Positions 1 through 35,687 of a stretch of DNA of 36,180 nucleotides are shown here, piece by piece. The notes under the pieces were generated by a model that saw only the letters and a list, made by a program, of their open reading frames with translations, was not told where the DNA came from and did not search any database. Origin of the DNA: a virus; IMG/VR virus record IMGVR_UViG_3300032038_000319. The stretch is one strand, 5' to 3'. Position numbers and translations under genes: made by a program. Numbering within the stretch: the first letter of the stretch is position 1; each line of letters begins with the position of its first letter.

Positions 1-127
1 CCTTGCAGTCCTGAATGATTAAATCTATCAGCTTTGCCATTTGCCGCCTGTCGAACGTGCTCGACCCGTACCACAAAAACACGTCTGTCCAGCCGTCATA
101 GCCTGAATACGCCTTATCTGTAAGCCA
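1..127. repeat. Left copy of the 127-bp terminal direct repeat (identical to 36054..36180); most likely a circular-assembly overlap
   Basis: Read directly: ccttgcagtcctgaatgatt...ctgtaagcca occurs at both ends. The repeat lies inside a coding frame that continues in phase across the junction. Confidence 0.9.
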
Positions 128-436
128 CCCTAAGCCTTTACTCTGCCACAGTTCACACAGCATATCTGCCGCCCTGTCTTCGACCCTCATTGTCTGCATA
201 TTATCGCCTATATCTCTGATATACGTCCGATATATAGCTGTTGTTTCAAGCCCCGTGACCGCTGACAGCTTATCCATAAGCACCCACGCACAAGCATTAG
301 CTGATAAAGACCGCTTGCGTTTGATTTCCTTGACCTCGATTTCAAAGGTCTTTTCATCGTCAAGGCTATCTATGTAACTATCAAGCCACGCCATAGCCTT
401 GACTTTTTCTGCTTTAGTAAACTTTAGCTTTTTCAT
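1..436 (-). CDS. NinB/Orf-like recombination mediator, 5' part (continues across the circular junction into 35980..36053; 169 aa in total)
   Basis: ATG at 436 forms an ATGA overlap with the ERF stop. My translation is MKKLKFTKAEKVKAMAWLDSYIDSL...KRKRSLSANACAWVLMDKL...GSSTFDRRQMAKLIDLIIQDCKEYGVE...EWKAERG. This resembles lambda NinB (NRSLDQNRKLWA, GQSTSRMRVGEFAELLELIQ, LEWKARWG). Joined length is 510 nt, in frame. Confidence 0.6.
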   Translation of the reverse strand, partial: MKKLKFTKAEKVKAMAWLDSYIDSLDDEKTFEIEVKEIKRKRSLSANACAWVLMDKLSAVTGLETTAIYRTYIRDIGDNMQTMRVEDRAADMLCELWQSKGLGWLTDKAYSGYDGWTDVFLWYGSSTFDRRQMAKLIDLIIQDCK

Positions 437-1011
437 TTTGTCTTTTTAAGCAACATCTGTATGCAGTTATTAGCGGCATCGAACGTCATATCCTGTAATC
501 TCTTTACCTTGTAATGCTCCAGCATCTTTGCTTTGTCGGTCTTTGTCTTGAAAACTAAGTCCTCGATCTGACAGCCTTGTTCGTTTGTTATCATCTTTGG
601 CTGTTTCGGGGGCGGCGGATTGTTTGCACTCTGATAAGCGTTTGTATCTGCGTCTTTGGTATCGTCTATCAGAAACAGCCCATTCAGCGCATATTTCCTC
701 GCATAGCTGCTTGCCGCTCCCGTGATTTGGCTTTCGTCTGCGCCTTTTTTGTTTTCAGGCTCACGGGCATACGCCGATGTTGTCAAACTGCTGCCCTTAT
801 CATCGGTAAACGTGCATATTGCCTTGACGTACACCCTGCCGCCTACCTCGATTATCTCATCGCTGATTGTCAGCATCGAGTTATATTTTGCAAGCAGGGG
901 CTTGACCGCTTCAAGGATATCCTCAGCCGACCTATACGCATAGTTTCCGAACTTGTTATACTGGTTTTTCGGGGCTTTTAACTCCGCTTGTATCTGTTTT
1001 AAACTTTCCAT
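433..1011 (-). CDS. erf: ERF-family single-strand annealing protein
   Basis: Track ORF 433..1026. Motifs include KFGNYAYRSAEDILEAVKPLL and GAASSYARKYALNGLF, typical of ERF. Start moved to the ATG at 1011 (MESLKQ), which follows GAGGAGTGAAACA. Confidence 0.8.
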   Translation of the reverse strand: MESLKQIQAELKAPKNQYNKFGNYAYRSAEDILEAVKPLLAKYNSMLTISDEIIEVGGRVYVKAICTFTDDKGSSLTTSAYAREPENKKGADESQITGAASSYARKYALNGLFLIDDTKDADTNAYQSANNPPPPKQPKMITNEQGCQIEDLVFKTKTDKAKMLEHYKVKRLQDMTFDAANNCIQMLLKKTK

Positions 1012-1015
1012 TGTT

Positions 1016-1261
1016 TCACTCCTCAAAAATTGCTATTTTAGGCAAGTCGAGCATCTCGCATATCTTGTCTTGCATATATGTGTTCGCAGACTTAAAATCA
1101 TTTTCGATTTTGTTATAATATGTTGAGCATATCCCCAGCTTTTCAGCCATTCGCCGCTGGTCTAACTCTTTGCACTTACGGGCAAATGATATAATGCCAC
1201 GTATTCGCTGTGCTTCCCGTATCTGTTCGGGCGTTTCTGCCCTTAAGTCTGCTTTTCTCAC
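1016..1261 (-). CDS. Small XRE-type HTH DNA-binding protein
   Basis: Track ORF. The segment ELDQRRMAEKLGICSTYYNKIEND is an HTH_3-like helix-turn-helix. GTG start forms a GTGA overlap with the upstream gene. Confidence 0.65.
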   Translation of the reverse strand: MRKADLRAETPEQIREAQRIRGIISFARKCKELDQRRMAEKLGICSTYYNKIENDFKSANTYMQDKICEMLDLPKIAIFEE

Positions 1262-1716
1262 TTAATCTGCATTGACGTTTTCTGCACCAGTTCTGCACCG
1301 TCAACGCTCTCACCTGCCTTTATAGCCGCCTTTATAGCCGTTTTGTCTGCTTCTGCCGGGGCAAAGCGTAAATAGTCTGTCGGTATCTTTGACAGGTCTG
1401 TGATGTTCACACTCTCACTTTTGCGATAAGATATAGCGCATTTTGGAGTTTCAAACTTTGCACCGTCAAGGGCGTTCATCAGATAAGCCGTCAAGCCGTC
1501 AATCTTGCTTTGTTTTGACTTAATCCTATCCTCAAACGCTTTCTTCTCTGCTTTGAGTTCTGCTACATCAGATTTAAGGTTTTTAAGCCAAAGGGCGGCG
1601 TTTTCAATTTTCTGCTCTCTTAACAGGTTTAAGGCTTCAAGCTGCTCTGCATCTACTTCGCCCGTTTCGGGGTCTATGCACTCCAGCATAGCTGCATCTA
1701 TCTCATATATTGTCAT
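1258..1716 (-). CDS. Siphovirus Gp157-like protein (recombination-module accessory)
   Basis: Track ORF, 152 aa. N-terminal IYEI...LE..DPETGEV, then a coiled coil KNLKSDVAELKAEKKAFEDRIKSKQSKIDGL, then ISYRKSESVNITD. This matches the Sipho_Gp157 layout, and it sits next to ERF. Confidence 0.65.
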   Translation of the reverse strand: MTIYEIDAAMLECIDPETGEVDAEQLEALNLLREQKIENAALWLKNLKSDVAELKAEKKAFEDRIKSKQSKIDGLTAYLMNALDGAKFETPKCAISYRKSESVNITDLSKIPTDYLRFAPAEADKTAIKAAIKAGESVDGAELVQKTSMQIK

Positions 1717-1973
1717 TAGTACGGCACGCTCCCTTCGGGCATATCAACAAGATACTCCTTTTTTGTTTCTGTTGCTGTTGCTGTGGTATTTCTCCACTCT
1801 TTTTTGTCAGGCTCAATGCCAAGAATGGCACGTATATCATCGGGCACATAATACCCGACTTCTGCAAGCTTTTTGATATCTTCAATTTTCGTTTCGGCTG
1901 TCGCCAAATCATACTGCATATCAAGCAATGTTGTTATAAAGTCATTTATAAATTCAATTGTTTTCTCGTTCAT
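1716..1973 (-). CDS. Hypothetical early protein (85 aa)
   Basis: Track ORF in operon register, overlapping the next gene's start by 1 nt. No recognisable motif. Confidence 0.5.
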   Translation of the reverse strand: MNEKTIEFINDFITTLLDMQYDLATAETKIEDIKKLAEVGYYVPDDIRAILGIEPDKKEWRNTTATATETKKEYLVDMPEGSVPY

Positions 1974-1983
1974 AATATCCTCC

Positions 1984-2214
1984 TTAAGCTGATTTTTTCC
2001 TGTTCTTCTTGACTTTCATACGGATTTCGCCGAAATGCTCGCCGCCCCAGTCTGTGCGGATTTCCTGCATCTCGCTTTCAAAATCCTTTTCAATCTTCAT
2101 TCGCTTCAAGGCCTTGTTAAACTTGCGTTCCCTCTCGCTATCAATCAACTGAAAAACGAGATACAACGAAAATGCCGTTAAGGCTATTGCGTATATAGCT
2201 GTTCCTATATTCAT
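1984..2214 (-). CDS. Small membrane protein (one N-terminal TM helix, basic tail)
   Basis: Track ORF. IGTAIYAIALTAFSLYLVFQLI is a TM segment. GGGAGGG RBS lies 6 nt before the ATG at 2214. Confidence 0.55.
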   Translation of the reverse strand: MNIGTAIYAIALTAFSLYLVFQLIDSERERKFNKALKRMKIEKDFESEMQEIRTDWGGEHFGEIRMKVKKNRKKSA

Positions 2215-2231
2215 GTTATTCCCTCCCGCAT

Positions 2232-2465
2232 TTATCCGTAGCCGTCGCCGTAGCCGTTGCCGTCGCCGTAGCCGTTGCCGTTGCCGTCGCCGTAGCCGTT
2301 GCCGTAGCCGTCGCCGTAGCCGTTGCCGTAGCCGTCGCCGTCGCCGTAGCCGTAGCCGTTGCCGTTGCCGTAGCCGTTGCCGTAGCCGTAGCCGTTGCCG
2401 TTGCCGTTATCGTAGCCGTAGCCGTCGCCGTCGCCGTAGCCGTAGCCGTAGATTTTAGCACTCAT
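2232..2465 (-). CDS. Gly-[Tyr/Asn/Asp] dipeptide-repeat protein (77 aa, MSAKI + 36 X-Gly units)
   Basis: This is the only one of the three open frames over the repeat that has an ATG. That ATG overlaps the upstream stop by 11 nt. The TAA stop is followed by the RBS of the next gene. Codons used are only GGC/TAC/AAC/GAC plus one GAT. Confidence 0.5.
   Translation of the reverse strand: MSAKIYGYGYGDGDGYGYDNGNGNGYGYGNGYGNGNGYGYGDGDGYGNGYGDGYGNGYGDGNGNGYGDGNGYGDGYG
2235..2450. repeat. 36 tandem hexanucleotide units (GCCGTN on the + strand, N = A/C/T, never G)
   Basis: Read directly. Apart from the first unit (tccgta) and one atcgta unit, only the 6th base varies. The lack of stop codons leaves three open frames (2213..2458 +, 2216..2461 -, 2232..2465 -). 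Confidence 0.95.
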
Positions 2466-2817
2466 AATCTTTCACCGCCTCGATACTTTCCCTTGCCTTT
2501 TCTGTGCAAGGTATTATCTCGATAGCTTCTGTAAGAATAATGAAGTTTACATGTGTGGAGAACTTGCATTCATCGGGTTTACTCACACCATACTTTGACA
2601 TTTCCGAAAGTGTGAATGCCCCTGCCCATTTCCACAGCCTGCGTGCGTTTACCAACTTCACGACCTTTTTTTCGCCCTCTTTGAAATAGCCTGCGTGAAC
2701 GCCTGCGCTGTAAGTTCTGATAATACAATATTTAAGCCCGTCCGTGCTTACTGCCATTTCCTGTGGTATATCGCTCTTTCTTACATATACCTCTCCGTTG
2801 ATTGTGATTTCGTTCAT
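2455..2817 (-). CDS. Conserved-looking phage protein of unknown function (120 aa)
   Basis: Track ORF. The core IIRTYSAGVHAGYFKEGEKKVVKLVNARRLWKWAGAFTLSEM recalls an uncharacterised family seen in many phages. This is from memory only. Confidence 0.55.
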   Translation of the reverse strand: MNEITINGEVYVRKSDIPQEMAVSTDGLKYCIIRTYSAGVHAGYFKEGEKKVVKLVNARRLWKWAGAFTLSEMSKYGVSKPDECKFSTHVNFIILTEAIEIIPCTEKARESIEAVKDYEC

Positions 2818-2829
2818 TGTGATTTCCTC

Positions 2830-2994
2830 CTATTCGTTTCCTGCCATTGCCGACAGTACCTTTGATATGTCCTTGCATATCTTCTGCTGATACCGTTCCC
2901 ATTCTTCACCCTGCATCATATCCTCTGTAAGCGGCTTGTATTCGCCGTTAACAGGGATAAAGAATTGAAACGTGATTTTCTTTTTGCTTGCCAT
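2830..2994 (-). CDS. Hypothetical small early protein (54 aa)
   Basis: Track ORF 2830..3015, trimmed to the ATG at 2994 (MASKKK). That ATG is preceded by GAGGAGTGATTAT and lies just after the antirepressor stop. Confidence 0.45.
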   Translation of the reverse strand: MASKKKITFQFFIPVNGEYKPLTEDMMQGEEWERYQQKICKDISKVLSAMAGNE

Positions 2995-2998
2995 ATAA

Positions 2999-3769
2999 TC
3001 ACTCCTCGCCGTCACCGAGAAATTTATTGATAAAGTATCTCTGACCCTTGCCCGTGACCTTTGGTGTTCTTGTTACTCTTACGCTGCCGTCAGGGTTGTT
3101 TATAACGTGTTCCTTGACCTCAAACAGCCCCAGTTCCATTGAATACTGCGTCGGCATATTGTAGCTGTTGCCCGATTTCATCAGATATCCGTTTGCTCTC
3201 AGCCATTCAAAAAGCCTTTTCTGCCCTATTTCATAGCCGTTTTGCTTTATCAGCTTTGCCAAATCGCCCACAAGTATTGACCCTTTGCTCACCTCAACGC
3301 TTTCAGCAAATAGCACCTTTGACCTGTCAGCCTTGATTTTTTCCTCTGCTACTATCCTGCGTTGCTTTTCCTCTTTCATCTCTGTGAGCAGATTTATGAG
3401 GAAGTCGGGGTTTTCGATAGTCTTTGCAAGAATATCATCGGTCATATACGCCCCGTGTCGGCGTATGCTTGGCAATATCTCACTTGTTACCCAACGCTTG
3501 AACTCTTTCGCCCTCGGCAGCTTACTGCTGAACACCAGTGAATACACACCGCTTTCGTTTATTACCGTGATTTCTTGCTTTCCTCCGGGGGTGTCGCATT
3601 TTGCGACCCCCTTATCTTCGGGGTCAACGTGCTTTGATAAAGCATCACGTACATTGCTGTATCCTAATGCTCTTGCAACATCACGCCCTAAGAAATACGG
3701 CTCTCCGTTCATCTCGGTTATTCTTACTCCTCCGAAAATAGGGCTTTCAAAGATTTTAATATTATTCAC
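2999..3769 (-). CDS. Phage antirepressor (Bro-N domain + KilAC/ANT-like C-terminal domain)
   Basis: Track ORF. IFESPIFGGVRITEMNGEPYFLGRDVARALGYSNVRDALSKHV is Bro-N-like. The C-terminal half (LIKQNGYEIGQKRLFEWLRANGYL) is KilAC-like. Start set to the GTG at 3769, after AAGGAGGTTAAAG. Confidence 0.75.
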   Translation of the reverse strand: MNNIKIFESPIFGGVRITEMNGEPYFLGRDVARALGYSNVRDALSKHVDPEDKGVAKCDTPGGKQEITVINESGVYSLVFSSKLPRAKEFKRWVTSEILPSIRRHGAYMTDDILAKTIENPDFLINLLTEMKEEKQRRIVAEEKIKADRSKVLFAESVEVSKGSILVGDLAKLIKQNGYEIGQKRLFEWLRANGYLMKSGNSYNMPTQYSMELGLFEVKEHVINNPDGSVRVTRTPKVTGKGQRYFINKFLGDGEE

Positions 3770-3786
3770 CTTTAACCTCCTTATCC

Positions 3787-3984
3787 TTATATGTCCAAAT
3801 ATTGACATACACTTGCCTGTATGGTAGTATTTATCACCGTGCCATTAAGCACCTGATTGAGCTGTTTCGGATTGACTTTGAGGATTTTCGCAAGCTGTAC
3901 TTGTGTCATTTCCTTATCAATAAGCCTTTTTTTTGCTTTTTTACACCATAAAGGCAACTTTTTTTGTTTTACAGTACCTATAAT
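3787..3984 (-). CDS. Cro-like small HTH protein with no canonical start codon near its RBS (start uncertain: ATT 3984, ATA 3981 or TTG 3957)
   Basis: Not in the track. My translation is ..GTVKQKKLPLWCKKAKKRLIDKEMTQVQLAKILKVNPKQLNQVLNGTV...QYLDI*. A perfect AAGGAGG lies at 3991..3997. This is the first gene of the leftward operon, facing the repressor. Confidence 0.5.
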   Translation of the reverse strand: MIGTVKQKKLPLWCKKAKKRLIDKEMTQVQLAKILKVNPKQLNQVLNGTVINTTIQASVCQYLDI

Positions 3985-4006
3985 CGTACACCTCCTTATT
4001 TGTATA

Positions 4007-4046
4007 TTGACAAATTATACATCATATGTTATACTAAAATTGTCAA
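4007..4046. promoter_or_regulatory. Overlapping divergent promoter elements and a 10-bp inverted repeat in the genetic-switch region
   Basis: On the + strand, TTGACA (4007..4012) is followed by a 17-bp spacer and TGtTATACT (-10 at 4030..4035). On the - strand, TTGACA (4046..4041) and TATAAT (4019..4014) are 21 bp apart, which is non-optimal. ttgacaaatt (4007..4016) and aaattgtcaa (4037..4046) form a 9/10 inverted repeat. Confidence 0.5.
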
Positions 4047-4119
4047 AAGCAGTATAACAAAAGGTATCAGCTCCCGAAAAAGGCTTAAATTCGAGGGGTC
4101 TGTTTTACTATACTCATTT

Positions 4120-4192
4120 TTGTATACTTGTCTATATATAATTATATTACGTTTAAGCGTAAATGTCAAGCATTTTTTACGTCTATGCGTAA
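4120..4192 (+). promoter_or_regulatory. Second candidate rightward promoter plus two operator-like palindromes upstream of the repressor gene
   Basis: TTGTAT (4120..4125), a 17-bp spacer, then TATATT (4143..4148). TTACGTTTAAGCGTAA (4147..4162) and TTACGTCTATGCGTAA (4177..4192) share TTACG-N5/6-GCGTAA dyad symmetry. Their centres are 30 bp apart. Confidence 0.4.
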
Positions 4193-4228
4193 GTTTTACA
4201 TTATGCATAATTATAATGAGGTGATTTT

Positions 4229-4582
4229 GTGAGTTTTTACGAAAATTTACATAACGCCTGCGAAATGCAGGGCTTAAAAGTATCAAATGTTGTAATAGAG
4301 GTTGGTGAAAAACTCGGCAGCCTTAACGGGTGGAAAAAAGGCTCAATGCCAAATAGCAAAGCTGTTATCGCTTTTGCATTACGTTTAAACGTATCAGCCG
4401 ATTATCTTCTTGACTTGCCTATAAAGCAAGTCACAAGTGCTGAACTTTCGGAAGCCGAAACCGAGCTGCTGTCACTATTTAGGGCTTGCCCAGATACAGA
4501 CAAGGAAAACATTATCTTGCTTGCTCGCTCTTTTGCCGAGCGTGAAACATCTGCAAAGGAAAAAGAAAAAATATCCATATAA
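4229..4582 (+). CDS. CI-like XRE-family repressor (HTH only, no S24 peptidase domain)
   Basis: Track ORF with a GTG start after GAGGTG. It has an HTH-like N-terminus (FYENLHNACEMQGLKVSNVVIEVGEKLGSLNGWKKG...ADYLL). It is divergent from the Cro-like/antirepressor operon. Confidence 0.7.
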   Translation: MSFYENLHNACEMQGLKVSNVVIEVGEKLGSLNGWKKGSMPNSKAVIAFALRLNVSADYLLDLPIKQVTSAELSEAETELLSLFRACPDTDKENIILLARSFAERETSAKEKEKISI

Positions 4583-4594
4583 AGAGGTGATATT

Positions 4595-4924
4595 ATGTTT
4601 GATTTAATAATGACGATTGTATTCGGTGCGTTTGGATATTGGCAATTCAAAAACAAAAAGACAGCATACGGTTTTATTTGGCTTTTAACGGGCGGTCTGT
4701 GTGGTATCGGCTGGGTGATTGATATATTCTCAGCTTACAAGGCATATAAAAAACCACCTGTCGAAACGCCGACCGAATTTTTAAGGCTCAACACCAAATC
4801 AATGACCGTTCACGTTTACAATTGCAGGCTTGTCAATGCAGATATGCCCCGATGCCATAATTACGATGAGGCAAAAGCTAAAGGCTTTAAACCTTGCCGT
4901 ATATGTATGCCTGACAGAAAATAG
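4595..4924 (+). CDS. Membrane protein: TM2-like N-terminal domain + Ada-type Cys-rich metal-binding-like C-terminus (lysogeny-module moron)
   Basis: Track ORF. GAFGYWQFKNKKTAYGFIWLLTGGLCGIGWVIDIF resembles a TM2 domain. VHVYNCRLVNADMPRCHNYDEAKAKGFKPCRICMP resembles the Ada-like H..C..C...GF.PC..C.P motif. Confidence 0.6.
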   Translation: MFDLIMTIVFGAFGYWQFKNKKTAYGFIWLLTGGLCGIGWVIDIFSAYKAYKKPPVETPTEFLRLNTKSMTVHVYNCRLVNADMPRCHNYDEAKAKGFKPCRICMPDRK

Positions 4925-5045
4925 CCACAAACGCATTTAAACACCCCATACAGCCGTTTTTAAAATAGGGGTATAGATATATAAAAATCAGTCAAAAACG
5001 CCATACACGGCATTTTGGTGCATAATACGATAAAGGAGTGATGAT

Positions 5046-6449
5046 ATGAAAATAGCAGCGGCATACATAAGGGTATCAACCGACAGTCAGACCGAGTTAT
5101 CGCCTGACAGCCAAATTAAGCTTATAAGGGAATATGCCAAATCACATGATATGATAGTACCCGATGAGTATATATTTCGTGATGACGGCATATCGGGCAG
5201 AACTACCGCAAAGCGACCACAGTTTAATGCTATGATTGGCACGGCAAAGAAAAAGCCAAAGCCGTTTGATGTTATCCTACTGTGGAAATTTAGCCGATTC
5301 GCTCGGAACCGTGAGGACAGCATTGTTTACAAGTCAATGCTTAAAAAAATCGGCATTGATGTTGTGAGCGTGTCCGAGCCTGTCGGTGATGATAAGATGT
5401 CTGTGCTTATCGAAGCGATGATTGAAGCGATGGACGAATATTACAGCATAAACCTGTCGGAAGAGGTCAACCGAGGAATGCTTGAAGCGTTGAGCCGTGG
5501 AAAATGTGTAAATTCTTATCCGCTCGGCTACAAGATGATTGATAAGCAACTAATCATCAACGAGGAAACCGCTCCAATCATTCGCAGGATATACGCCGAG
5601 TTTATAAGTGGCAAAAATATGTTGCCGATTGCAAGAGGGCTGACCGCTGACGGATACCGCACACTATACGGCAAGCCGTTTGAAACACGCACCATTGAAT
5701 ACATTTTGCGAAATCCCATTTATAAAGGGTATCTGAGATACACACCCGGGGGAAACGGCAGCAAGCAACACTATCACGGCATTGAGCCAATGATTTTCAA
5801 AGGTGTTCACGATGCTATCATACCGCCTGATATGTGGGATAAAGCCGCCGAGCGTATGGAGAGCATTAAAAAAGCACATCAAAAATACCGCCGAGATACG
5901 GCACAAAAATATGATTTAATGCTCCGTGGTCTGCTCAAATGCTCAAATTGTGGGTGTACTCTGACATACACATCAAAAGGCTATCAATGTGGAAATTACA
6001 ACAGGGGCAAATGCTCTGTATCGCATTATGTGAGCGAAAACAGGATAAACGAGGCTGTTGTAAATGCTGTCCGCACTCTTAACATCAACGGCAGAATAAA
6101 CATTGTGCCGCCCAAAGAGCCGATGATACAAGATAACACCGCCGACCTCATCAAACGTGAGGAAAACAAGCTAAAGCGCATAAAAGAAGCATATCTAAAC
6201 GGCATTGATACCATTGAGGAATACAAAGCCAATAAACAAAAAATCACCGCCGACCTTGAAAAACTCAAAGCAAAACAAAAAAAGCCCGAGCCAAAGCCCG
6301 AGCTTGAAACACGCCGATTTGATTTTATAAGAATGTTTGATGAGGGTACTTTTACCCCCGGTGAGTTAAACGCTGCTCTTAAAGCGTTTATAGCATATAT
6401 TATATATGACCGCTTGAATGATAATATAACGCTTTTTTTAAACCCTTAA
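5046..6449 (+). CDS. int: Large serine recombinase (integrase)
   Basis: Track ORF, 467 aa. Has the AAYIRVSTDSQ resolvase catalytic motif, a recombinase domain, a Cys cluster CSNCGCTLTYTSKGYQCGNYNRGKC and a C-terminal coiled coil. Confidence 0.9.
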   Translation: MKIAAAYIRVSTDSQTELSPDSQIKLIREYAKSHDMIVPDEYIFRDDGISGRTTAKRPQFNAMIGTAKKKPKPFDVILLWKFSRFARNREDSIVYKSMLKKIGIDVVSVSEPVGDDKMSVLIEAMIEAMDEYYSINLSEEVNRGMLEALSRGKCVNSYPLGYKMIDKQLIINEETAPIIRRIYAEFISGKNMLPIARGLTADGYRTLYGKPFETRTIEYILRNPIYKGYLRYTPGGNGSKQHYHGIEPMIFKGVHDAIIPPDMWDKAAERMESIKKAHQKYRRDTAQKYDLMLRGLLKCSNCGCTLTYTSKGYQCGNYNRGKCSVSHYVSENRINEAVVNAVRTLNINGRINIVPPKEPMIQDNTADLIKREENKLKRIKEAYLNGIDTIEEYKANKQKITADLEKLKAKQKKPEPKPELETRRFDFIRMFDEGTFTPGELNAALKAFIAYIIYDRLNDNITLFLNP

Positions 6450-6452
6450 TTA

Positions 6453-6492
6453 CAAACATTTACAAAAAGGCGGGGCGTGTTGAAAATGTTTG
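6453..6492. other. Perfect 9-bp inverted repeat (caaacattt / aaatgtttg) with a 22-bp spacer, immediately 3' of int; attP candidate
   Basis: Read directly at 6453..6461 and 6484..6492. Serine-integrase attP sites are roughly 40-50 bp imperfect dyads that usually lie next to int. Confidence 0.35.
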
Positions 6493-6493
6493 C

Positions 6494-6525
6494 AATAAAA
6501 AAGGGGCTACCGTAAAGATAGCCCC
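6494..6525 (-). terminator. Rho-independent terminator closing the late (lysis) operon
   Basis: GGGGCTA (6503..6509) pairs with TAGCCCC (6519..6525), with a 9-nt loop. On the - strand it is followed by TTTTTTATT (+ strand A-run 6497..6502). It sits 7 nt after the endolysin stop. Confidence 0.8.
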
Positions 6526-32491: not shown

Positions 32492-33334
32492 TCACCTCAT
32501 TCTGTAATTTTTTGATTTGTCTTTCGGGATATCCAGTACATAGCTTTTTGCCATTTCCCTGATACGCCCTGCTGTCGCCTCATCGAGTGCCGATATATCG
32601 TAAATCGTCAGCTCTGATGATATGATTGTTATCTTGTCGGGCTGCTTATATCGCTTGTCAATGACCTCGAATGTTTTGATAATGTCCTGCCGTGTAAACT
32701 TTGCGTCCGTTCCGTCAGGCTTGAAATAATCGTCTATATACAGCACATCAACGTTGCACAAATCATCAGCATAGCTTGCCCTTGTTTCATCTTTGTAGTC
32801 TTTGAGCCGTTCAATCATTTGCACCCACATCACATATCTTGTAGCCTTGCCCTGCTTGATAAACTCCCTTGCAATAGCCGAGCAGATATGTGTTTTGCCT
32901 GCGCCGCTTTGCCCGCCGATGTAAAAACACCTTGCCTTATCTTCTTTGAGCGTGAGGTCTTGCTTAATGAACGATAACGCCCTTTCTTTGATGTTTTTTT
33001 GCCACTCTTCGGGGGTCTCAAAATCTGCTATCTTTTTTATGCTGCCCTCTAAGCCGCTTTGCTTTAGAATGCCGATTGACTTTCTCACCTTTTGGCATTT
33101 GCAGGGCTTATATGCTATGCTCTCATCAACGATAACAGGCATATATCCTCTGTTTTTGCACTCATCGCAATTGTAGCCGTCTATCATGTCAAGCGTGCCT
33201 GTCCTCTTTAACTCTTTTTCAAGGTCATATCTCAGCCAATCTTCCGCAGAATACGCATCAAACGATTTGAATGCCTCGATATCTCTCATCTGCTCCGACA
33301 AGACCGAAGTCAGAGAGTCCATTCCTATTATCAT
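32492..33334 (-). CDS. DnaC/IstB-like AAA+ helicase loader
   Basis: Track ORF, 280 aa. Walker A is GGQSGAGKTHICSAIA and Walker B is VLYIDDY. The N-terminus carries a Cys cluster CDECKNRG...CKCQK. Confidence 0.8.
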   Translation of the reverse strand: MIIGMDSLTSVLSEQMRDIEAFKSFDAYSAEDWLRYDLEKELKRTGTLDMIDGYNCDECKNRGYMPVIVDESIAYKPCKCQKVRKSIGILKQSGLEGSIKKIADFETPEEWQKNIKERALSFIKQDLTLKEDKARCFYIGGQSGAGKTHICSAIAREFIKQGKATRYVMWVQMIERLKDYKDETRASYADDLCNVDVLYIDDYFKPDGTDAKFTRQDIIKTFEVIDKRYKQPDKITIISSELTIYDISALDEATAGRIREMAKSYVLDIPKDKSKNYRMR

Positions 33335-34010
33335 AATTTCCCTCCAATACCTTGATAAAGTTTGACGGCTTCATTAACCAATCAAAACTTGCTTTGAAAG
33401 GTCTGCTTCCTTGATTGCTTACCTTGCCCGTAAGAAAGTCGCTTTTCTCTGCTTTTTGAAATACTGTGATGATATCATCAAAGCTGTATTCTTTGAGCCT
33501 TGCTTTGACAGTTGCTTTTCTTGATTTGTCAATGCTGATGATTTTAGGTAGGGAAATACAGATTTCACAGAATTTTTCTTTGACTTGGGTATATATATTC
33601 TCATCTATATTACTAACTATTTTACTATCTATATTACTTTCTTCACAATTTGTGAAGTCTGCCTTGCTTTTTTGTGTAGTCTGCCTTGCGCTTTTGTGTA
33701 GTCTGCCTTCACAATTTGTGAAGTCTGCCTTGCGCAAACTAACCTTACTTTTAAGCACTCTCTTGCGCCCGTCAAAGCTTTTAATATAGATATATCCTAA
33801 CTGTATCAGCTTTGAAATAGCCCTTGAAACGTTACCTTTACTGCACTTGCAAAATGCCGCTATATGTTCATTTGAAGCATAACACCCTGTTTCTTCATCG
33901 TCTAAGCTGTCAATCTCGGCAAGGATAACCTTATCTAATGCACTAAGGTTATCATCAAGCCATATCTCTTTGGGTATCCATATACCCTTGAATTGCCGTT
34001 CCTCTCCCAT
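33258..34010 (-). CDS. Replication initiator / replisome organiser (N-terminal wHTH, Phg_2220_C-like C-terminus)
   Basis: Track ORF, 250 aa. N-terminus is GIWIPKEIWLDDNLSALDKVILAEI...NVSRAISKLIQLGYI. C-terminus is VKARLKEYSFDDIITVFQKAEKSDFLTGK...FDWLMKPSNFIKVLEGNY. The central part carries the iterons. Confidence 0.7.
   Translation of the reverse strand: MGEERQFKGIWIPKEIWLDDNLSALDKVILAEIDSLDDEETGCYASNEHIAAFCKCSKGNVSRAISKLIQLGYIYIKSFDGRKRVLKSKVSLRKADFTNCEGRLHKSARQTTQKSKADFTNCEESNIDSKIVSNIDENIYTQVKEKFCEICISLPKIISIDKSRKATVKARLKEYSFDDIITVFQKAEKSDFLTGKVSNQGSRPFKASFDWLMKPSNFIKVLEGNYDNRNGLSDFGLVGADERYRGIQIV
33601..33733. repeat. Candidate origin of replication: four 22-bp-spaced iterons plus an adjacent AT-rich block, inside the initiator gene
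   Basis: The core GTG(A/T)AGTCTGCCTT occurs at 33652, 33674, 33696 and 33718. The outer two are part of a perfect 26-bp repeat (33642..33667 and 33708..33733). The AT-rich block 33601..33641 contains CTATATTACT twice. Confidence 0.65.
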
Positions 34011-34081: not shown

Positions 34082-34540
34082 TCAGAAGGGAATCCCCGAA
34101 TCCGATATAACATCTTCATAGTCGGTATAGCCGTTCTGTGGTGCGCCCTGTGGCGTGTTGTAAGGTATTTGGGTGTTGCTATACCCCTGATTGTTACCAC
34201 CGCTAAAACCACCGTTATTTTCGTTTTTAGGCTCACCCGTGAATGATGTTCTTTCGACTATTACATCTGTGGTATATACTGTTTCTCCGTTTTTGTTCTG
34301 ATAGCTTCCCGTCTTGATGTTGCCCTCAATGGCTATCATTCTGCCCTTGCCGAAATATCTGCCGATAAACTCAGCTGTCTGCCCGAATGCAACACAGTTG
34401 ATAAAATCGGCTGACTTCTCGCCGTTCTTCTGCGGTCTGTCCACCGCCACCGAAAACCTAAGCACAGCCGTTCCGCTCTGTGATTGCCTGATTTCAAGGT
34501 CTTTTGTTATGCGCCCCATTATGATTACTCTGTTTAGCAT
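34082..34540 (-). CDS. ssb: Single-stranded DNA-binding protein
   Basis: Track ORF 34082..34609, trimmed to MLNRVIIMGRITKDLEIR.. at 34540. It has an OB-fold N-terminus, a Gly/Asn/Gln-rich linker and an acidic tail DSGIPF. Confidence 0.9.
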   Translation of the reverse strand: MLNRVIIMGRITKDLEIRQSQSGTAVLRFSVAVDRPQKNGEKSADFINCVAFGQTAEFIGRYFGKGRMIAIEGNIKTGSYQNKNGETVYTTDVIVERTSFTGEPKNENNGGFSGGNNQGYSNTQIPYNTPQGAPQNGYTDYEDVISDSGIPF

Positions 34541-34727
34541 ATTTAGATATCCTTTCTGATAATAATAAATAACTATCAATGTGCTGTTCTGCTTCTTTCT
34601 GCGTTTCAATCTTCTTTGTGCAAGCGGCGTGCATCTTAAATGTACCCTTATAAAAAATCATATAGTGATAATTCTCTGTAAGCTCTTGCACAAGTGTATA
34701 GCCTTTATATTCAAAGCTTTGTTGCAT
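34494..34727 (-). CDS. Hypothetical protein (77 aa)
   Basis: Track ORF. GGAGGTAAAA lies before the ATG at 34727. It overlaps the ssb start by 47 nt. Confidence 0.4.
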   Translation of the reverse strand: MQQSFEYKGYTLVQELTENYHYMIFYKGTFKMHAACTKKIETQKEAEQHIDSYLLLSERISKYAKQSNHNGAHNKRP

Positions 34728-34897: not shown

Positions 34898-35086
34898 TGC
34901 CTTTGCTGAACCATGCAATACTTTGCCACTGCAGAACAATACCAAACACAACTACGCCTACGCCCCACATTGCTAAATGATACATCACTTCGCAATACCA
35001 TGCCATGCCTTTGCTGAACTATACATCACTTCGCAATACCATGCCATGCCTTCGCGACACAGCACCTTGCTTGACTATGCCTTTGC
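34898..35086. repeat. Direct-repeat array in a ~230-bp non-coding spacer of the replication/recombination module
   Basis: A perfect 32-bp repeat atacatcacttcgcaataccatgccatgcctt occurs at 34980..35011 and 35021..35052, a 41-bp period. tgcctttgctgaac occurs at 34898..34911 and 35006..35019. A shorter tgcctttgc occurs at 35078..35086. Confidence 0.85.
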
Positions 35087-35087
35087 G

Positions 35088-35687
35088 TTAATTAAGGATT
35101 TCAAACGTAAATGCACCCTTGCCTGAATTTCTCCATTGACCCAAGCCGTGCCATTCACCATAAGCGAGCCATTCTTTTACAAGCTCCTCGTCATCATCAT
35201 TCATACAGTGTACTGTAAATGTTGCCGTAGCTCCTGCTGGGATTGTCTCAGAATTAGCAAGTGCAATTCTCTCACCCTGCGCTGTCTGACCTCTTAACGG
35301 TCTCTGACAGTTACCAATTTCGCCGTCAAACTCTATCGGTATCATTCTCGGCTTGACAAATACAAGTCCGTCAATTTCCTTTTTGTACGCCTTTATCTTT
35401 GAACTTAAACTGCCCTTAACCTTACGCAGAAAGCCACAGCTCTCTTTCATATGACCTCTTATCTGATAGTCATATATTATCGGCTTGCCCTCTGCATTTC
35501 TCGGGAATACTGTCATTGACTTCTCGACATATTCCTCAACGCCTATTGCAGCAACTTCTTCCTCTGTGCTCTTAGCATCAGGGGCTTTGCTTGCAATAAA
35601 TTCAGCGTGTACCTCGGGATTTGCGCTTGCAGTACCCAACAAATCCTCAATAAATGTGATTTTTACCTTGATTTCTTTCATTTTCAA
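35088..35687 (-). CDS. Early protein of unknown function (199 aa) with a C-terminal RAMP-like glycine-rich loop
   Basis: Track ORF. The C-terminus ...EWHGLGQWRNSGKGAFTFEILN fits G-h-G-x5-G-x-G followed by a beta strand. The N-terminus IKVKITFIEDLLG and the internal YQIRGHMKES are also RAMP-reminiscent. Similarity was judged by eye only. Confidence 0.6.
   Translation of the reverse strand: MKMKEIKVKITFIEDLLGTASANPEVHAEFIASKAPDAKSTEEEVAAIGVEEYVEKSMTVFPRNAEGKPIIYDYQIRGHMKESCGFLRKVKGSLSSKIKAYKKEIDGLVFVKPRMIPIEFDGEIGNCQRPLRGQTAQGERIALANSETIPAGATATFTVHCMNDDDEELVKEWLAYGEWHGLGQWRNSGKGAFTFEILN

Follow-up and report, generated by a model that had tools for sequence, protein, structure and literature searches.

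A hexanucleotide array in a temperate siphophage genome read as a Gly-X dipeptide-repeat gene paired with DUF6948

Is a hexanucleotide repeated 36 times in a viral genome a gene, and if so, what could its product do? This question is raised by the minus-strand open reading frame (ORF) 2232-2465 of IMG/VR virus record IMGVR_UViG_3300032038_000319, whose whole 36,180 nucleotides were analysed and are called the window here. A first-pass annotation, made from the letters alone, had described this ORF as a chain of Gly-Tyr, Gly-Asn and Gly-Asp units and had considered roles both for the protein and for the DNA. We found that the ORF is almost certainly a coding gene belonging to a conserved two-gene module, of which the other half is the gene directly upstream, a member of the DUF6948 family.

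The repeat gene and its DUF6948 partner

Tandem Repeats Finder (TRF) reported the array at 2236-2451 with a period of 6, 36.0 copies and a score of 285. Counting the plus-strand hexamers across 2235-2450 gave GCCGTA 15 times, GCCGTT 11 times and GCCGTC 8 times, so that 34 of 36 were GCCGT[A/C/T]; the two others were TCCGTA at 2235, which is the final Gly codon (GGA), and ATCGTA at 2409, where GAT puts Asp in the place of Gly. Position 6 was never G and the second-position A of the NAC codons was invariant, so the counts agreed with the original description of 36 tandem hexamers with two exceptions. A three-unit pattern (up to 2 mismatches) matched 34 times, every time within 2235-2449, where shuffles predict 0.05 matches, and the same search found no second copy of the array in the 36-kb window. 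When all six frames were searched for runs of at least five Gly-X units, the array at 2235-2450 was again the only one.

On the coding strand (reverse complement of 1800-3000), ATG AGT GCT AAA ATC is followed by 36 NAC-GGC units and TAA, and the 77-aa product has an MSAKI leader and then 36 X-Gly units. The X residues were Tyr (17), Asn (11) and Asp (8), and none was basic; the whole protein has 9 Asp and 1 Lys, which makes it acidic as first noted, is rich in tyrosine and has no aliphatic residues beyond MSAKI. The TAA (2234-2232) comes directly after the last Gly and is followed by GGGAGGG (2227-2221) and the next ATG at 2214, so the position of the stop ahead of the ribosome-binding site of the next gene, like the start 11 nt inside the upstream gene, could be read directly in the sequence. 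The statement that only the Gly-X frame has an ATG was right for the minus strand, where the other frame begins with GTG at 2461, but wrong for the plus strand, where the ORF 2213-2458 is likewise ATG-initiated. The features of the locus are collected in Table 1.

Table 1 Features of the repeat-gene locus in the window and members of the fused form in related loci
Feature	Position	Strand	Basis
Gly-X dipeptide-repeat gene, stand-alone form, stops right after the array	2232..2465	-	ORF listing, sequence, related loci
Hexamer array, 36 units, NAC-GGC on the coding strand	2235..2450	-	TRF, hexamer counts, pattern search
DUF6948 gene, 120-aa protein, conserved upstream partner	2455..2817	-	Pfam PF22253, AlphaFold2, Foldseek, alignment
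11-nt overlap ATGAGTGCTAA, repeat gene start with DUF6948 stop	2455..2465	-	sequence
Shine-Dalgarno-like GAGGCGGTGA, 7-16 nt 5' of the repeat gene ATG	2472..2481	-	sequence
76-aa protein with one hydrophobic helix	1984..2214	-	ORF listing
Fused-form members	L006 1749-2390, L005 1767-2288, P0121-P0240		

The product of 2455-2817 matched Pfam DUF6948 (PF22253) over profile positions 2-85 of 85 (E 1.1e-28, 99.6 bits against a cutoff of 27). This neighbour had been called conserved-looking, and it is conserved; beyond that, it proved to be a near-obligate partner of the repeat gene, with a predicted fold that is Sm-like. Megablast of window positions 1-6500 against 50,697 phage records gave no match, and tblastn of DUF6948 among cultured and deposited phages gave 17 records only. 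Five of these records were inspected. In four of them, namely Ralstonia phage NK-7, Pectobacterium phage Koroua, Manatee Spring podovirus and Chlorobiaceae phage CV-1-33, the next gene downstream of DUF6948 encodes a Gly-X repeat protein, while in the fifth, human-gut phage MT835900, the next gene encodes a short GYGSGYGDGYG stretch and then a globular domain. The NK-7 homologue is annotated in GenBank as "fibroin heavy chain-like protein". The CV-1-33 record (L001 1827-2085, GenBank MT192033, gene_25) annotates the array in the wrong frame (MAMAMALAMA...); the Gly-X frame (MDGINYGYGDGDGSG...), which agrees with every other locus, opens with a separate ATG that overlaps the stop of DUF6948.

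An alignment-based scan of IMG/VR found at least 567 relatives among the first 600 pattern matches, from which 80 loci were kept, and the same scan of GTDB with one genome per species found 105 relatives, of which 80 loci were also kept. An array was counted if at least 5 Gly-X units started within 300 nt after DUF6948 on the same strand. Such an array directly followed DUF6948 in 78 of the 80 IMG/VR loci and in 74 of the 80 GTDB species genomes (4 of the 6 exceptions had less than 50 nt of downstream sequence), against a chance expectation of about 0.03 or less per locus. Outside the zone after DUF6948, Gly-X runs numbered 22 in 264 kb and 4 in 185 kb, counted in six frames. Related phages therefore do keep a Gly-X array at the same position, the point that the first-pass annotation had proposed to check. 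The GTDB lineages included Bacillota (Firmicutes), Pseudomonadota (Proteobacteria), Bacteroidota, Chlorobiaceae, Planctomycetota, cyanobacteria, Nitrospirota, Actinomycetota, candidate-phyla bacteria and a few archaeal bins, and the pair recurs in phages and prophages assigned to most bacterial phyla. An exhaustive profile search gave 2383 DUF6948 representatives at the 50% identity cluster level, which puts the pair among the more widespread phage modules known to us without an assigned function; the closest DUF6948 homologues in species genomes were 68% identical and belonged to Ruminococcus and Oscillospiraceae assemblies. The repeat protein itself is barely detectable by homology, and it is synteny that reveals it as half of a conserved gene pair.

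We define here a DUF6948-linked Gly-X group, which we leave unnamed, as (Gly-X)n arrays, usually of 10-75 units, whose X is for the most part Ser, Tyr, Asp, Asn or Phe and hardly ever Lys, Arg or His. The window fits this group by its position after DUF6948, its X composition, its short leader and its stop at the end of the array. Some loci have a Gly-X gene on both sides of DUF6948 (L052 93-1125, L085 2215-3378), and in L052 both copies share the leader MTEDKIFNGSGSG. On the 103-kb contig L096, a gene with Sequestin and Tad2-like domains (4991-5707) lies two genes downstream of the pair; from their names we take these to be anti-defence sponge families.

The ATG of the repeat gene (2465-2463) overlaps the TAA stop of the DUF6948 gene (2457-2455) by 11 nt, which is consistent with translational coupling. 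In about 90 related loci, with few exceptions, the DUF6948 match ended no more than about 25 nt from a start codon, mostly ATG, and the two ORFs overlapped by 10-17 nt in several pairs that were checked directly. A Shine-Dalgarno (SD) core (GGAG, GAGG or AGGA) was found at -20 to -5 of the start in 40 of 82 related loci, compared with 14% at random positions, and in most related loci the typical repeat ORF stopped 0-17 residues past the last unit. A leader M-S/P-K/R-L-N-K-P before the array was common to L004, L163, L166, L168, L170, L171, L173 and L175, and loci with this leader were assigned to Pectobacterium, Moraxella, Betaproteobacteria and Syntrophomonadaceae, among others. The leader may be a docking motif, or it may be constrained by the overlap with the end of the DUF6948 coding sequence.

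The Gly-X array also occurs in fused form. With the 213-aa fused protein of L006 as the query, at least 4058 protein clusters (90% identity) were matched, and 11 of the 12 matched sequences inspected had a short N-terminal helix, an in-frame Gly-X array and a domain of about 155 aa, while the twelfth was the 155-aa domain alone. The window's nearest relatives, L006 and L007, carry this fused form, and their DUF6948 proteins are 98% identical to that of the window. All fused proteins with known context lay directly after DUF6948, and three of them overlapped it by 11-13 nt. The in-frame fusion to a conserved domain in L006 and L007, together with the array after DUF6948 across loci, supports the Gly-X frame as the coding frame. 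In the AlphaFold2 model of one fused homologue the pLDDT was above 90 for the domain and about 30 for the array, and since this is a close homologue whose repeat region was modelled as disordered, the earlier idea of a disordered repeat gained support. In the 155-aa domain His83, His131 and Cys138 are invariant and Cys146 is nearly so; the domain matched no Pfam, PHROG or NCBIfam family, and Foldseek of its model against PDB gave no match (best E 0.29). No relation between DUF6948 and the fused family was found with hhalign (probability 0.06). A third architecture, seen in P0250, P0259 and P0262, has an N-terminal domain of about 60 aa (..AGACK....DL.W.E) and then a C-terminal Gly-X array.

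Selection on residues and turnover of whole hexamers

Among about 2650 X residues pooled across related arrays, Ser (805), Tyr (672), Asp (571), Asn (250) and Phe (93) were the common ones, and His (22), Cys (34), Ala (24), Val (8), Lys (11) and Arg (6) were rare. Expressed as fractions, 0.31 of X residues were aromatic, 0.22 acidic and 0.003 basic. Selection holds Gly at alternate residues and Ser, Tyr, Asp, Asn or Phe between them, with Lys and Arg almost excluded and His rare. While the residues were kept, the codons varied between arrays: the major Tyr codon was TAT in 30 arrays and TAC in 22, the major Asp codon was GAC in 26 and GAT in 26, the major Ser codon was TCT in 32, TCC in 14 and AGC in 3, and the major Gly codon was GGC in 69, GGT in 9 and GGA in 5. 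Within one array the share of the major codon was 0.89-1.0, which fits array growth by duplication of whole units. Aromatic residues were spaced more evenly than in shuffles in 36 of 47 arrays. The array mRNA folded worse than all 200 dinucleotide shuffles (z = +3.6), so a structured RNA was rejected, and the variation of codons under constant residues likewise speaks against the DNA- or RNA-level role that had been suggested for the array.

Two codon preferences were observed beside this. GGC made up 73% of the Gly codons in arrays compared with 26% in flanking ORFs (L001-L094 and the window; genomes of 31-65% G+C), and Ser in arrays was almost always encoded by TCY, not AGY. It is possible that the GGC/TCY bias reflects tRNA supply for long Gly runs or the avoidance of SD-like GGAG/GGTG strings.

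An exact 24-mer from the junction was found in no viral contig and in one metagenome contig, L177 (JGI metagenome). L177 was identical to the window for 564 nt upstream, including the whole DUF6948 gene, and for 307 nt downstream, and its differences were confined to 2390-2444, where one GGCAAC unit was added and one T>A changed Tyr to Asn. So L177 has 37 units and 79 aa against 36 units and 77 aa in the window, with the frame kept. L006 and L007 have flanks of 99.3-99.9% identity and arrays that differ by 90 nt (15 hexamers), L011 and L012 have flanks of 100% and 99.4% identity and arrays that differ by 66 nt (11 hexamers), and L020 and L021 show 4 differences in 3946 nt, all within 18 nt of the array, which equals three units replaced. 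The array evolves by gain, loss and replacement of whole hexamers, which means that the reading frame is always kept. Metagenome contigs often ended inside the array (L008, L009, L010, L013, L014), so the larger length differences could partly reflect assembly collapse, while L177 is a clean single-unit change. The similarity of the window to L006, L007, L011 and L012 stopped at the distal end of the array, and the array is therefore also a mosaic boundary.

The earlier suggestion of a contingency locus with variable unit number was thus half right: the number does vary, always in frame, but a 6-nt unit makes no on/off locus. A phase-variable on/off switch was not supported, because the differences of 6, 66 and 90 nt are all in frame and inside the ORF. 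A diversity-generating retroelement was also rejected, as the 36-kb genome has no second array copy and the A of NAC is invariant (not every ORF was checked for a reverse transcriptase). For genome annotation, these arrays mean that gene callers and low-complexity filters hide or misframe Gly-X genes, and that short-read assemblies break at the arrays and may collapse them.

A possible trans-acting tail for a probably Sm-like protein

For the DUF6948 protein of the window, AlphaFold2 with a 30-sequence alignment gave a mostly beta model with a mean pLDDT of 80. When this model was compared with PDB by Foldseek, the top 50 matches were nearly all Sm/LSm chains (archaeal Sm, Lsm1-7, spliceosomal Sm), with E of 2e-3 to 1.6e-2, target-normalised TM of about 0.4-0.7 and query-normalised TM of about 0.4. 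Among the BFVD viral models the best matches were other DUF6948 proteins, and Sm-like, RNA-binding and Hfq-like names came further down. The residues invariant across distant homologues include R59, R60, W62 and W64, in the motif ARR[LI]WxW. The DUF6948 protein is likely an Sm/LSm-like small beta-barrel.

Our tentative proposal, which we favour without holding it to be probable, is that the repeat protein is a trans-acting tail that binds and regulates an Sm-like DUF6948 oligomer. The repeat protein would be a multivalent, nucleic-acid-like ligand, in which the aromatic residues would be base-like, Asp would be phosphate-like and Gly would give a flexible backbone. It would dock on the putative Arg-Arg-x-Trp-x-Trp patch of DUF6948 oligomers, and the docking would gate, or compete with, the binding of RNA or single-stranded DNA (ssDNA) by DUF6948, as the acidic tip of Hfq does. 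Alternatively or additionally, the rings might be cross-linked into higher-order assemblies early in lytic growth, and the unit number would set the valency. A wider and more speculative version is that the Sm-like ring and the length-tunable Tyr/Asp polymer form a two-component phage system, a nucleic-acid-mimicking condensate or sponge that would capture and release RNA, ssDNA or the host proteins binding them early in infection, with hexamer slippage tuning its valency. If the Sm-like protein with a tail in trans is the true picture, the pair would be a phage device for handling RNA or ssDNA that is regulated by a disordered mimic. In the repeat protein there would also be a minimal "sticker-spacer" polymer of natural origin, with a valency that changes through slippage in real populations, and it could serve as a model for the effect of repeat number on multivalent binding.

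Among characterised systems, Hfq comes closest. Its disordered C-terminal domain has an acidic tip, in Escherichia coli as in Acinetobacter baumannii, and this tip attaches to the basic Sm core as a mimic of nucleic acid (PMC5606850); in A. baumannii the domain also carries GGFGGQ repeats, whose number matters for function (PMC11617691). The likeness lies in the combination of an Sm-fold protein with a disordered stretch rich in glycine, aromatic and acidic residues. The differences are that the phage tail would be a separate polypeptide from a coupled downstream gene, that its period is two residues and not six with acidic and aromatic residues interleaved along the whole chain, and that its partner DUF6948, a candidate for ring formation and RNA binding, has no sequence-level match to Hfq or LSM. 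What would be new here is a probable Sm-type protein and a disordered, Gly-rich acidic tail split into two genes, with the tail built from dipeptides.

Several points weigh against this proposal. The Sm-like assignment comes from one model with Foldseek E near 1e-3 to 1e-2, and sequence searches lent it no support, as the DUF6948 protein matched its own family alone in Pfam at E <= 1, with no Sm, LSm or Hfq profile, and the family profile had no match among PDB sequences at E <= 10 (hmmsearch). Because this sequence-level support is absent, we grade the fold as likely and not as proven. The DUF6948 protein is approximately charge-neutral (17 K/R, 17 D/E) and so is no generally basic partner for a polyanion. 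The even spacing of aromatics was individually significant in 10 of 47 arrays, and block duplication could yield the same pattern. Gly-X arrays are also joined to other, unrelated domains, and the array may have a general role without DUF6948. The contact between the two proteins, the oligomerisation of DUF6948 and its binding of nucleic acid are all steps that we infer.

Other repeat proteins offer partial likenesses. Eukaryotic Sm B, D1, D3 and LSm4 have Arg-Gly dipeptide-repeat tails in cis, which are methylated and bound by Tudor domains. The shared feature would be an Sm fold accompanied by Gly-X dipeptides that offer many docking sites, but the phage repeat has Tyr, Asp, Asn or Ser at X, is negatively charged overall and comes from a gene of its own. 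Sm D1 was a very weak low-complexity match of the fused family among PDB sequences. The low-complexity domains of FUS and hnRNP proteins have [G/S]Y[G/S] motifs, are described by the "stickers and spacers" model and form LARKS. They share with the phage protein Gly/Ser spacers, regular Tyr/Phe stickers, disorder and a lack of aliphatic residues, whereas the phage protein is much shorter, has a strict two-residue period and about 22% Asp/Glu at X, lacks Gln and an attached RNA-binding domain, and is not eukaryotic. The hexanucleotide array is also like the C9orf72 GGGGCC repeat, in that it is read as a dipeptide repeat, has all frames open and is unstable in length; C9orf72 is a pathogenic non-coding expansion with non-canonical translation, in contrast to an ATG-initiated phage gene under purifying selection across phyla. 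PDB entries of GR20 matched the low-complexity part of the fused family.

Next to the trans-acting tail, the alternative that survives best, though we consider it unlikely, is a decoy directed at the host. The polymer would mimic nucleic acid or another polyanion, with a restriction or other defence nuclease, RNase E and the degradosome, or SSB/OB-fold proteins as candidate targets, and DUF6948 would only chaperone, dose or deliver it. The strongly acidic composition without basic residues fits this, as known phage DNA mimics such as Ocr and ArdA are acidic, but these are folded with fixed charge spacing and are not dipeptide repeats. The repeat gene has an antirepressor as its neighbour in an early, accessory region of the genome, a Sequestin/Tad2-like gene lies near the pair in L096, and the fast turnover restricted to the array in otherwise identical genomes is what an arms race predicts. 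On the other hand, a pairing with DUF6948 that is near-obligate in many phyla and hosts points to a target within the module or a universal one, and away from a host-specific one. Neither protein had a match in PADLOC, which says little because PADLOC covers defence and not anti-defence.

Somewhat less likely still is a self-assembling material, in which a silk-like or LARKS-like cross-beta structure or a FUS-like Tyr condensate would make a phage gel or compartment, with DUF6948 as client or nucleator. The silk fibroin heavy chain consists of GAGAGS/GAGAGY repeats with X mainly Ala and Ser, and glycine/tyrosine-rich structural proteins occur in plants and animals. With a strict period of two residues, the X side chains of a strand would all point to the same side, and silk, too, has Gly alternating with small or aromatic residues through tens of units; Tyr and Phe make up 31% of X and tend to even spacing, GYGNGYG-like segments resemble the kinked aromatic-rich segments of FUS and hnRNPA1, and one GenBank homologue has the fibroin-like name given above. 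Yet X is about 22% Asp/Glu with no counter-charge, and at neutral pH this disfavours sheet stacking and homotypic condensation if neither cations nor a basic partner are there; the array also came out of AlphaFold2 without ordered structure. The phage arrays are poor in Ala, the residue that dominates X in silk, and rich in Asp, and the protein is small and cytoplasmic, with no signal peptide and no crystalline blocks.

That the window copy is a decayed remnant, left without function of its own after loss of the 155-aa C-terminal domain, is very improbable. It would explain why the array continues in frame into that domain in L006 and L007, whose DUF6948 is so close to the window's, and why the DNA similarity ends exactly at the distal end of the array. 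But stand-alone arrays are the majority form across phyla, they are already indicated to share the residue-level selection of the fused ones, the window ORF is unbroken, from an SD-like sequence and ATG to a clean TAA, and L177 retains the stand-alone gene open with one unit more.

Least credible of all is an element acting at the nucleic-acid level, whether as a set of binding sites, a hot spot for recombination, a structured RNA or a contingency switch, with an incidental ORF, for although third codon positions are near-invariant within an array while the first base of the X codon varies, GGC is over-represented, the array is a mosaic boundary and several assemblies break within it, there is no common nucleotide motif because different arrays encode the same residues by different codons (TAT/TAC, GAT/GAC, TCT/AGC, GGC/GGT/GGA), the RNA is less structured than its shuffles, a 6-nt unit is unable to switch frame, the Gly-X frame runs into a conserved folded domain in thousands of relatives, and the neighbouring-codon residues His, Cys, Val and Ala are avoided. 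The remaining probability belongs to an explanation not yet thought of.

Family searches and genome neighbourhood

The repeat protein had nothing above cutoff in Pfam or NCBIfam, and phmmer against 5.8 billion proteins gave 35 weak, unnamed matches. TrAA12, "serine-rich protein" and PHROGs of unknown function were sub-threshold low-complexity matches only and were rejected. The family phrog_18306 weakly matched both the repeat protein and DUF6948; it was not used, because in L085 a wrong-frame ORF runs from the upstream array into DUF6948, so that this family may rest on mis-called ORFs. PADLOC models at E <= 1 gave no match for the repeat protein, DUF6948, the membrane protein or the fused homologue, and the fused family matched only linker-like low-complexity stretches among PDB sequences. 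An RTX/beta-roll (GGxGxDxUx nonapeptide, hydrophobic at position 8) was rejected, with a period of 2 residues, no aliphatic residues in the array and no RTX-type match in Pfam, and a silk fibroin-type (GAGAGS)n was rejected too, as the window array has no Ala or Ser and Ala is so scarce across the family. A literature search on DUF6948, the repeat protein and their pairing found no paper, and a paper on Ymer-genus Pectobacterium phages does not mention the gene. So the view that this protein has no named function or curated family held in the Pfam, NCBIfam, PADLOC and literature searches.

The window is a complete, circularly permuted genome of a temperate siphophage. The repeat gene sits in the early lytic operon on the minus strand, with an antirepressor having Bro-N and KilAC domains (2999-3808) upstream of the pair and Gp157/Gam-like (1258-1716) and Erf (433-1026) genes downstream. 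The operon runs on across the ends of the sequence and includes genes for SSB, an HTH_36 initiator, a DnaC-like loader, an SNF2 helicase and a methylase, and the cI-like repressor and serine integrase have divergent orientation. The small membrane protein after the repeat gene had been thought to make up a cassette with the pair, but only DUF6948 and the Gly-X gene are kept together. A small hydrophobic protein resembling the 1984-2214 product follows the repeat gene only in the close relatives L011 and L012, and a hydrophobic small protein came next after the repeat gene in 5 of 57 loci compared with 13% of background small ORFs. With no enrichment, the cassette was rejected, and the 1984-2214 gene is a lineage-specific neighbour and not part of the conserved module.

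Two other repeat regions were observed in the window. A 21-bp repeat of 3.3 copies (62% matches) lies at 34988-35055 between the SSB gene (34082-34609) and a 199-aa ORF (35088-35687) that had no Pfam match. Direct repeats of 12 bp (4.4 copies, 33590-33642) and 22 bp (3.9 copies, 33649-33735) lie inside the HTH_36 replication-initiator gene (33258-34010), which adjoins the DnaC/IstB-like loader (32492-33334), and these repeats at 33590-33735 look like an iteron-type replication origin.

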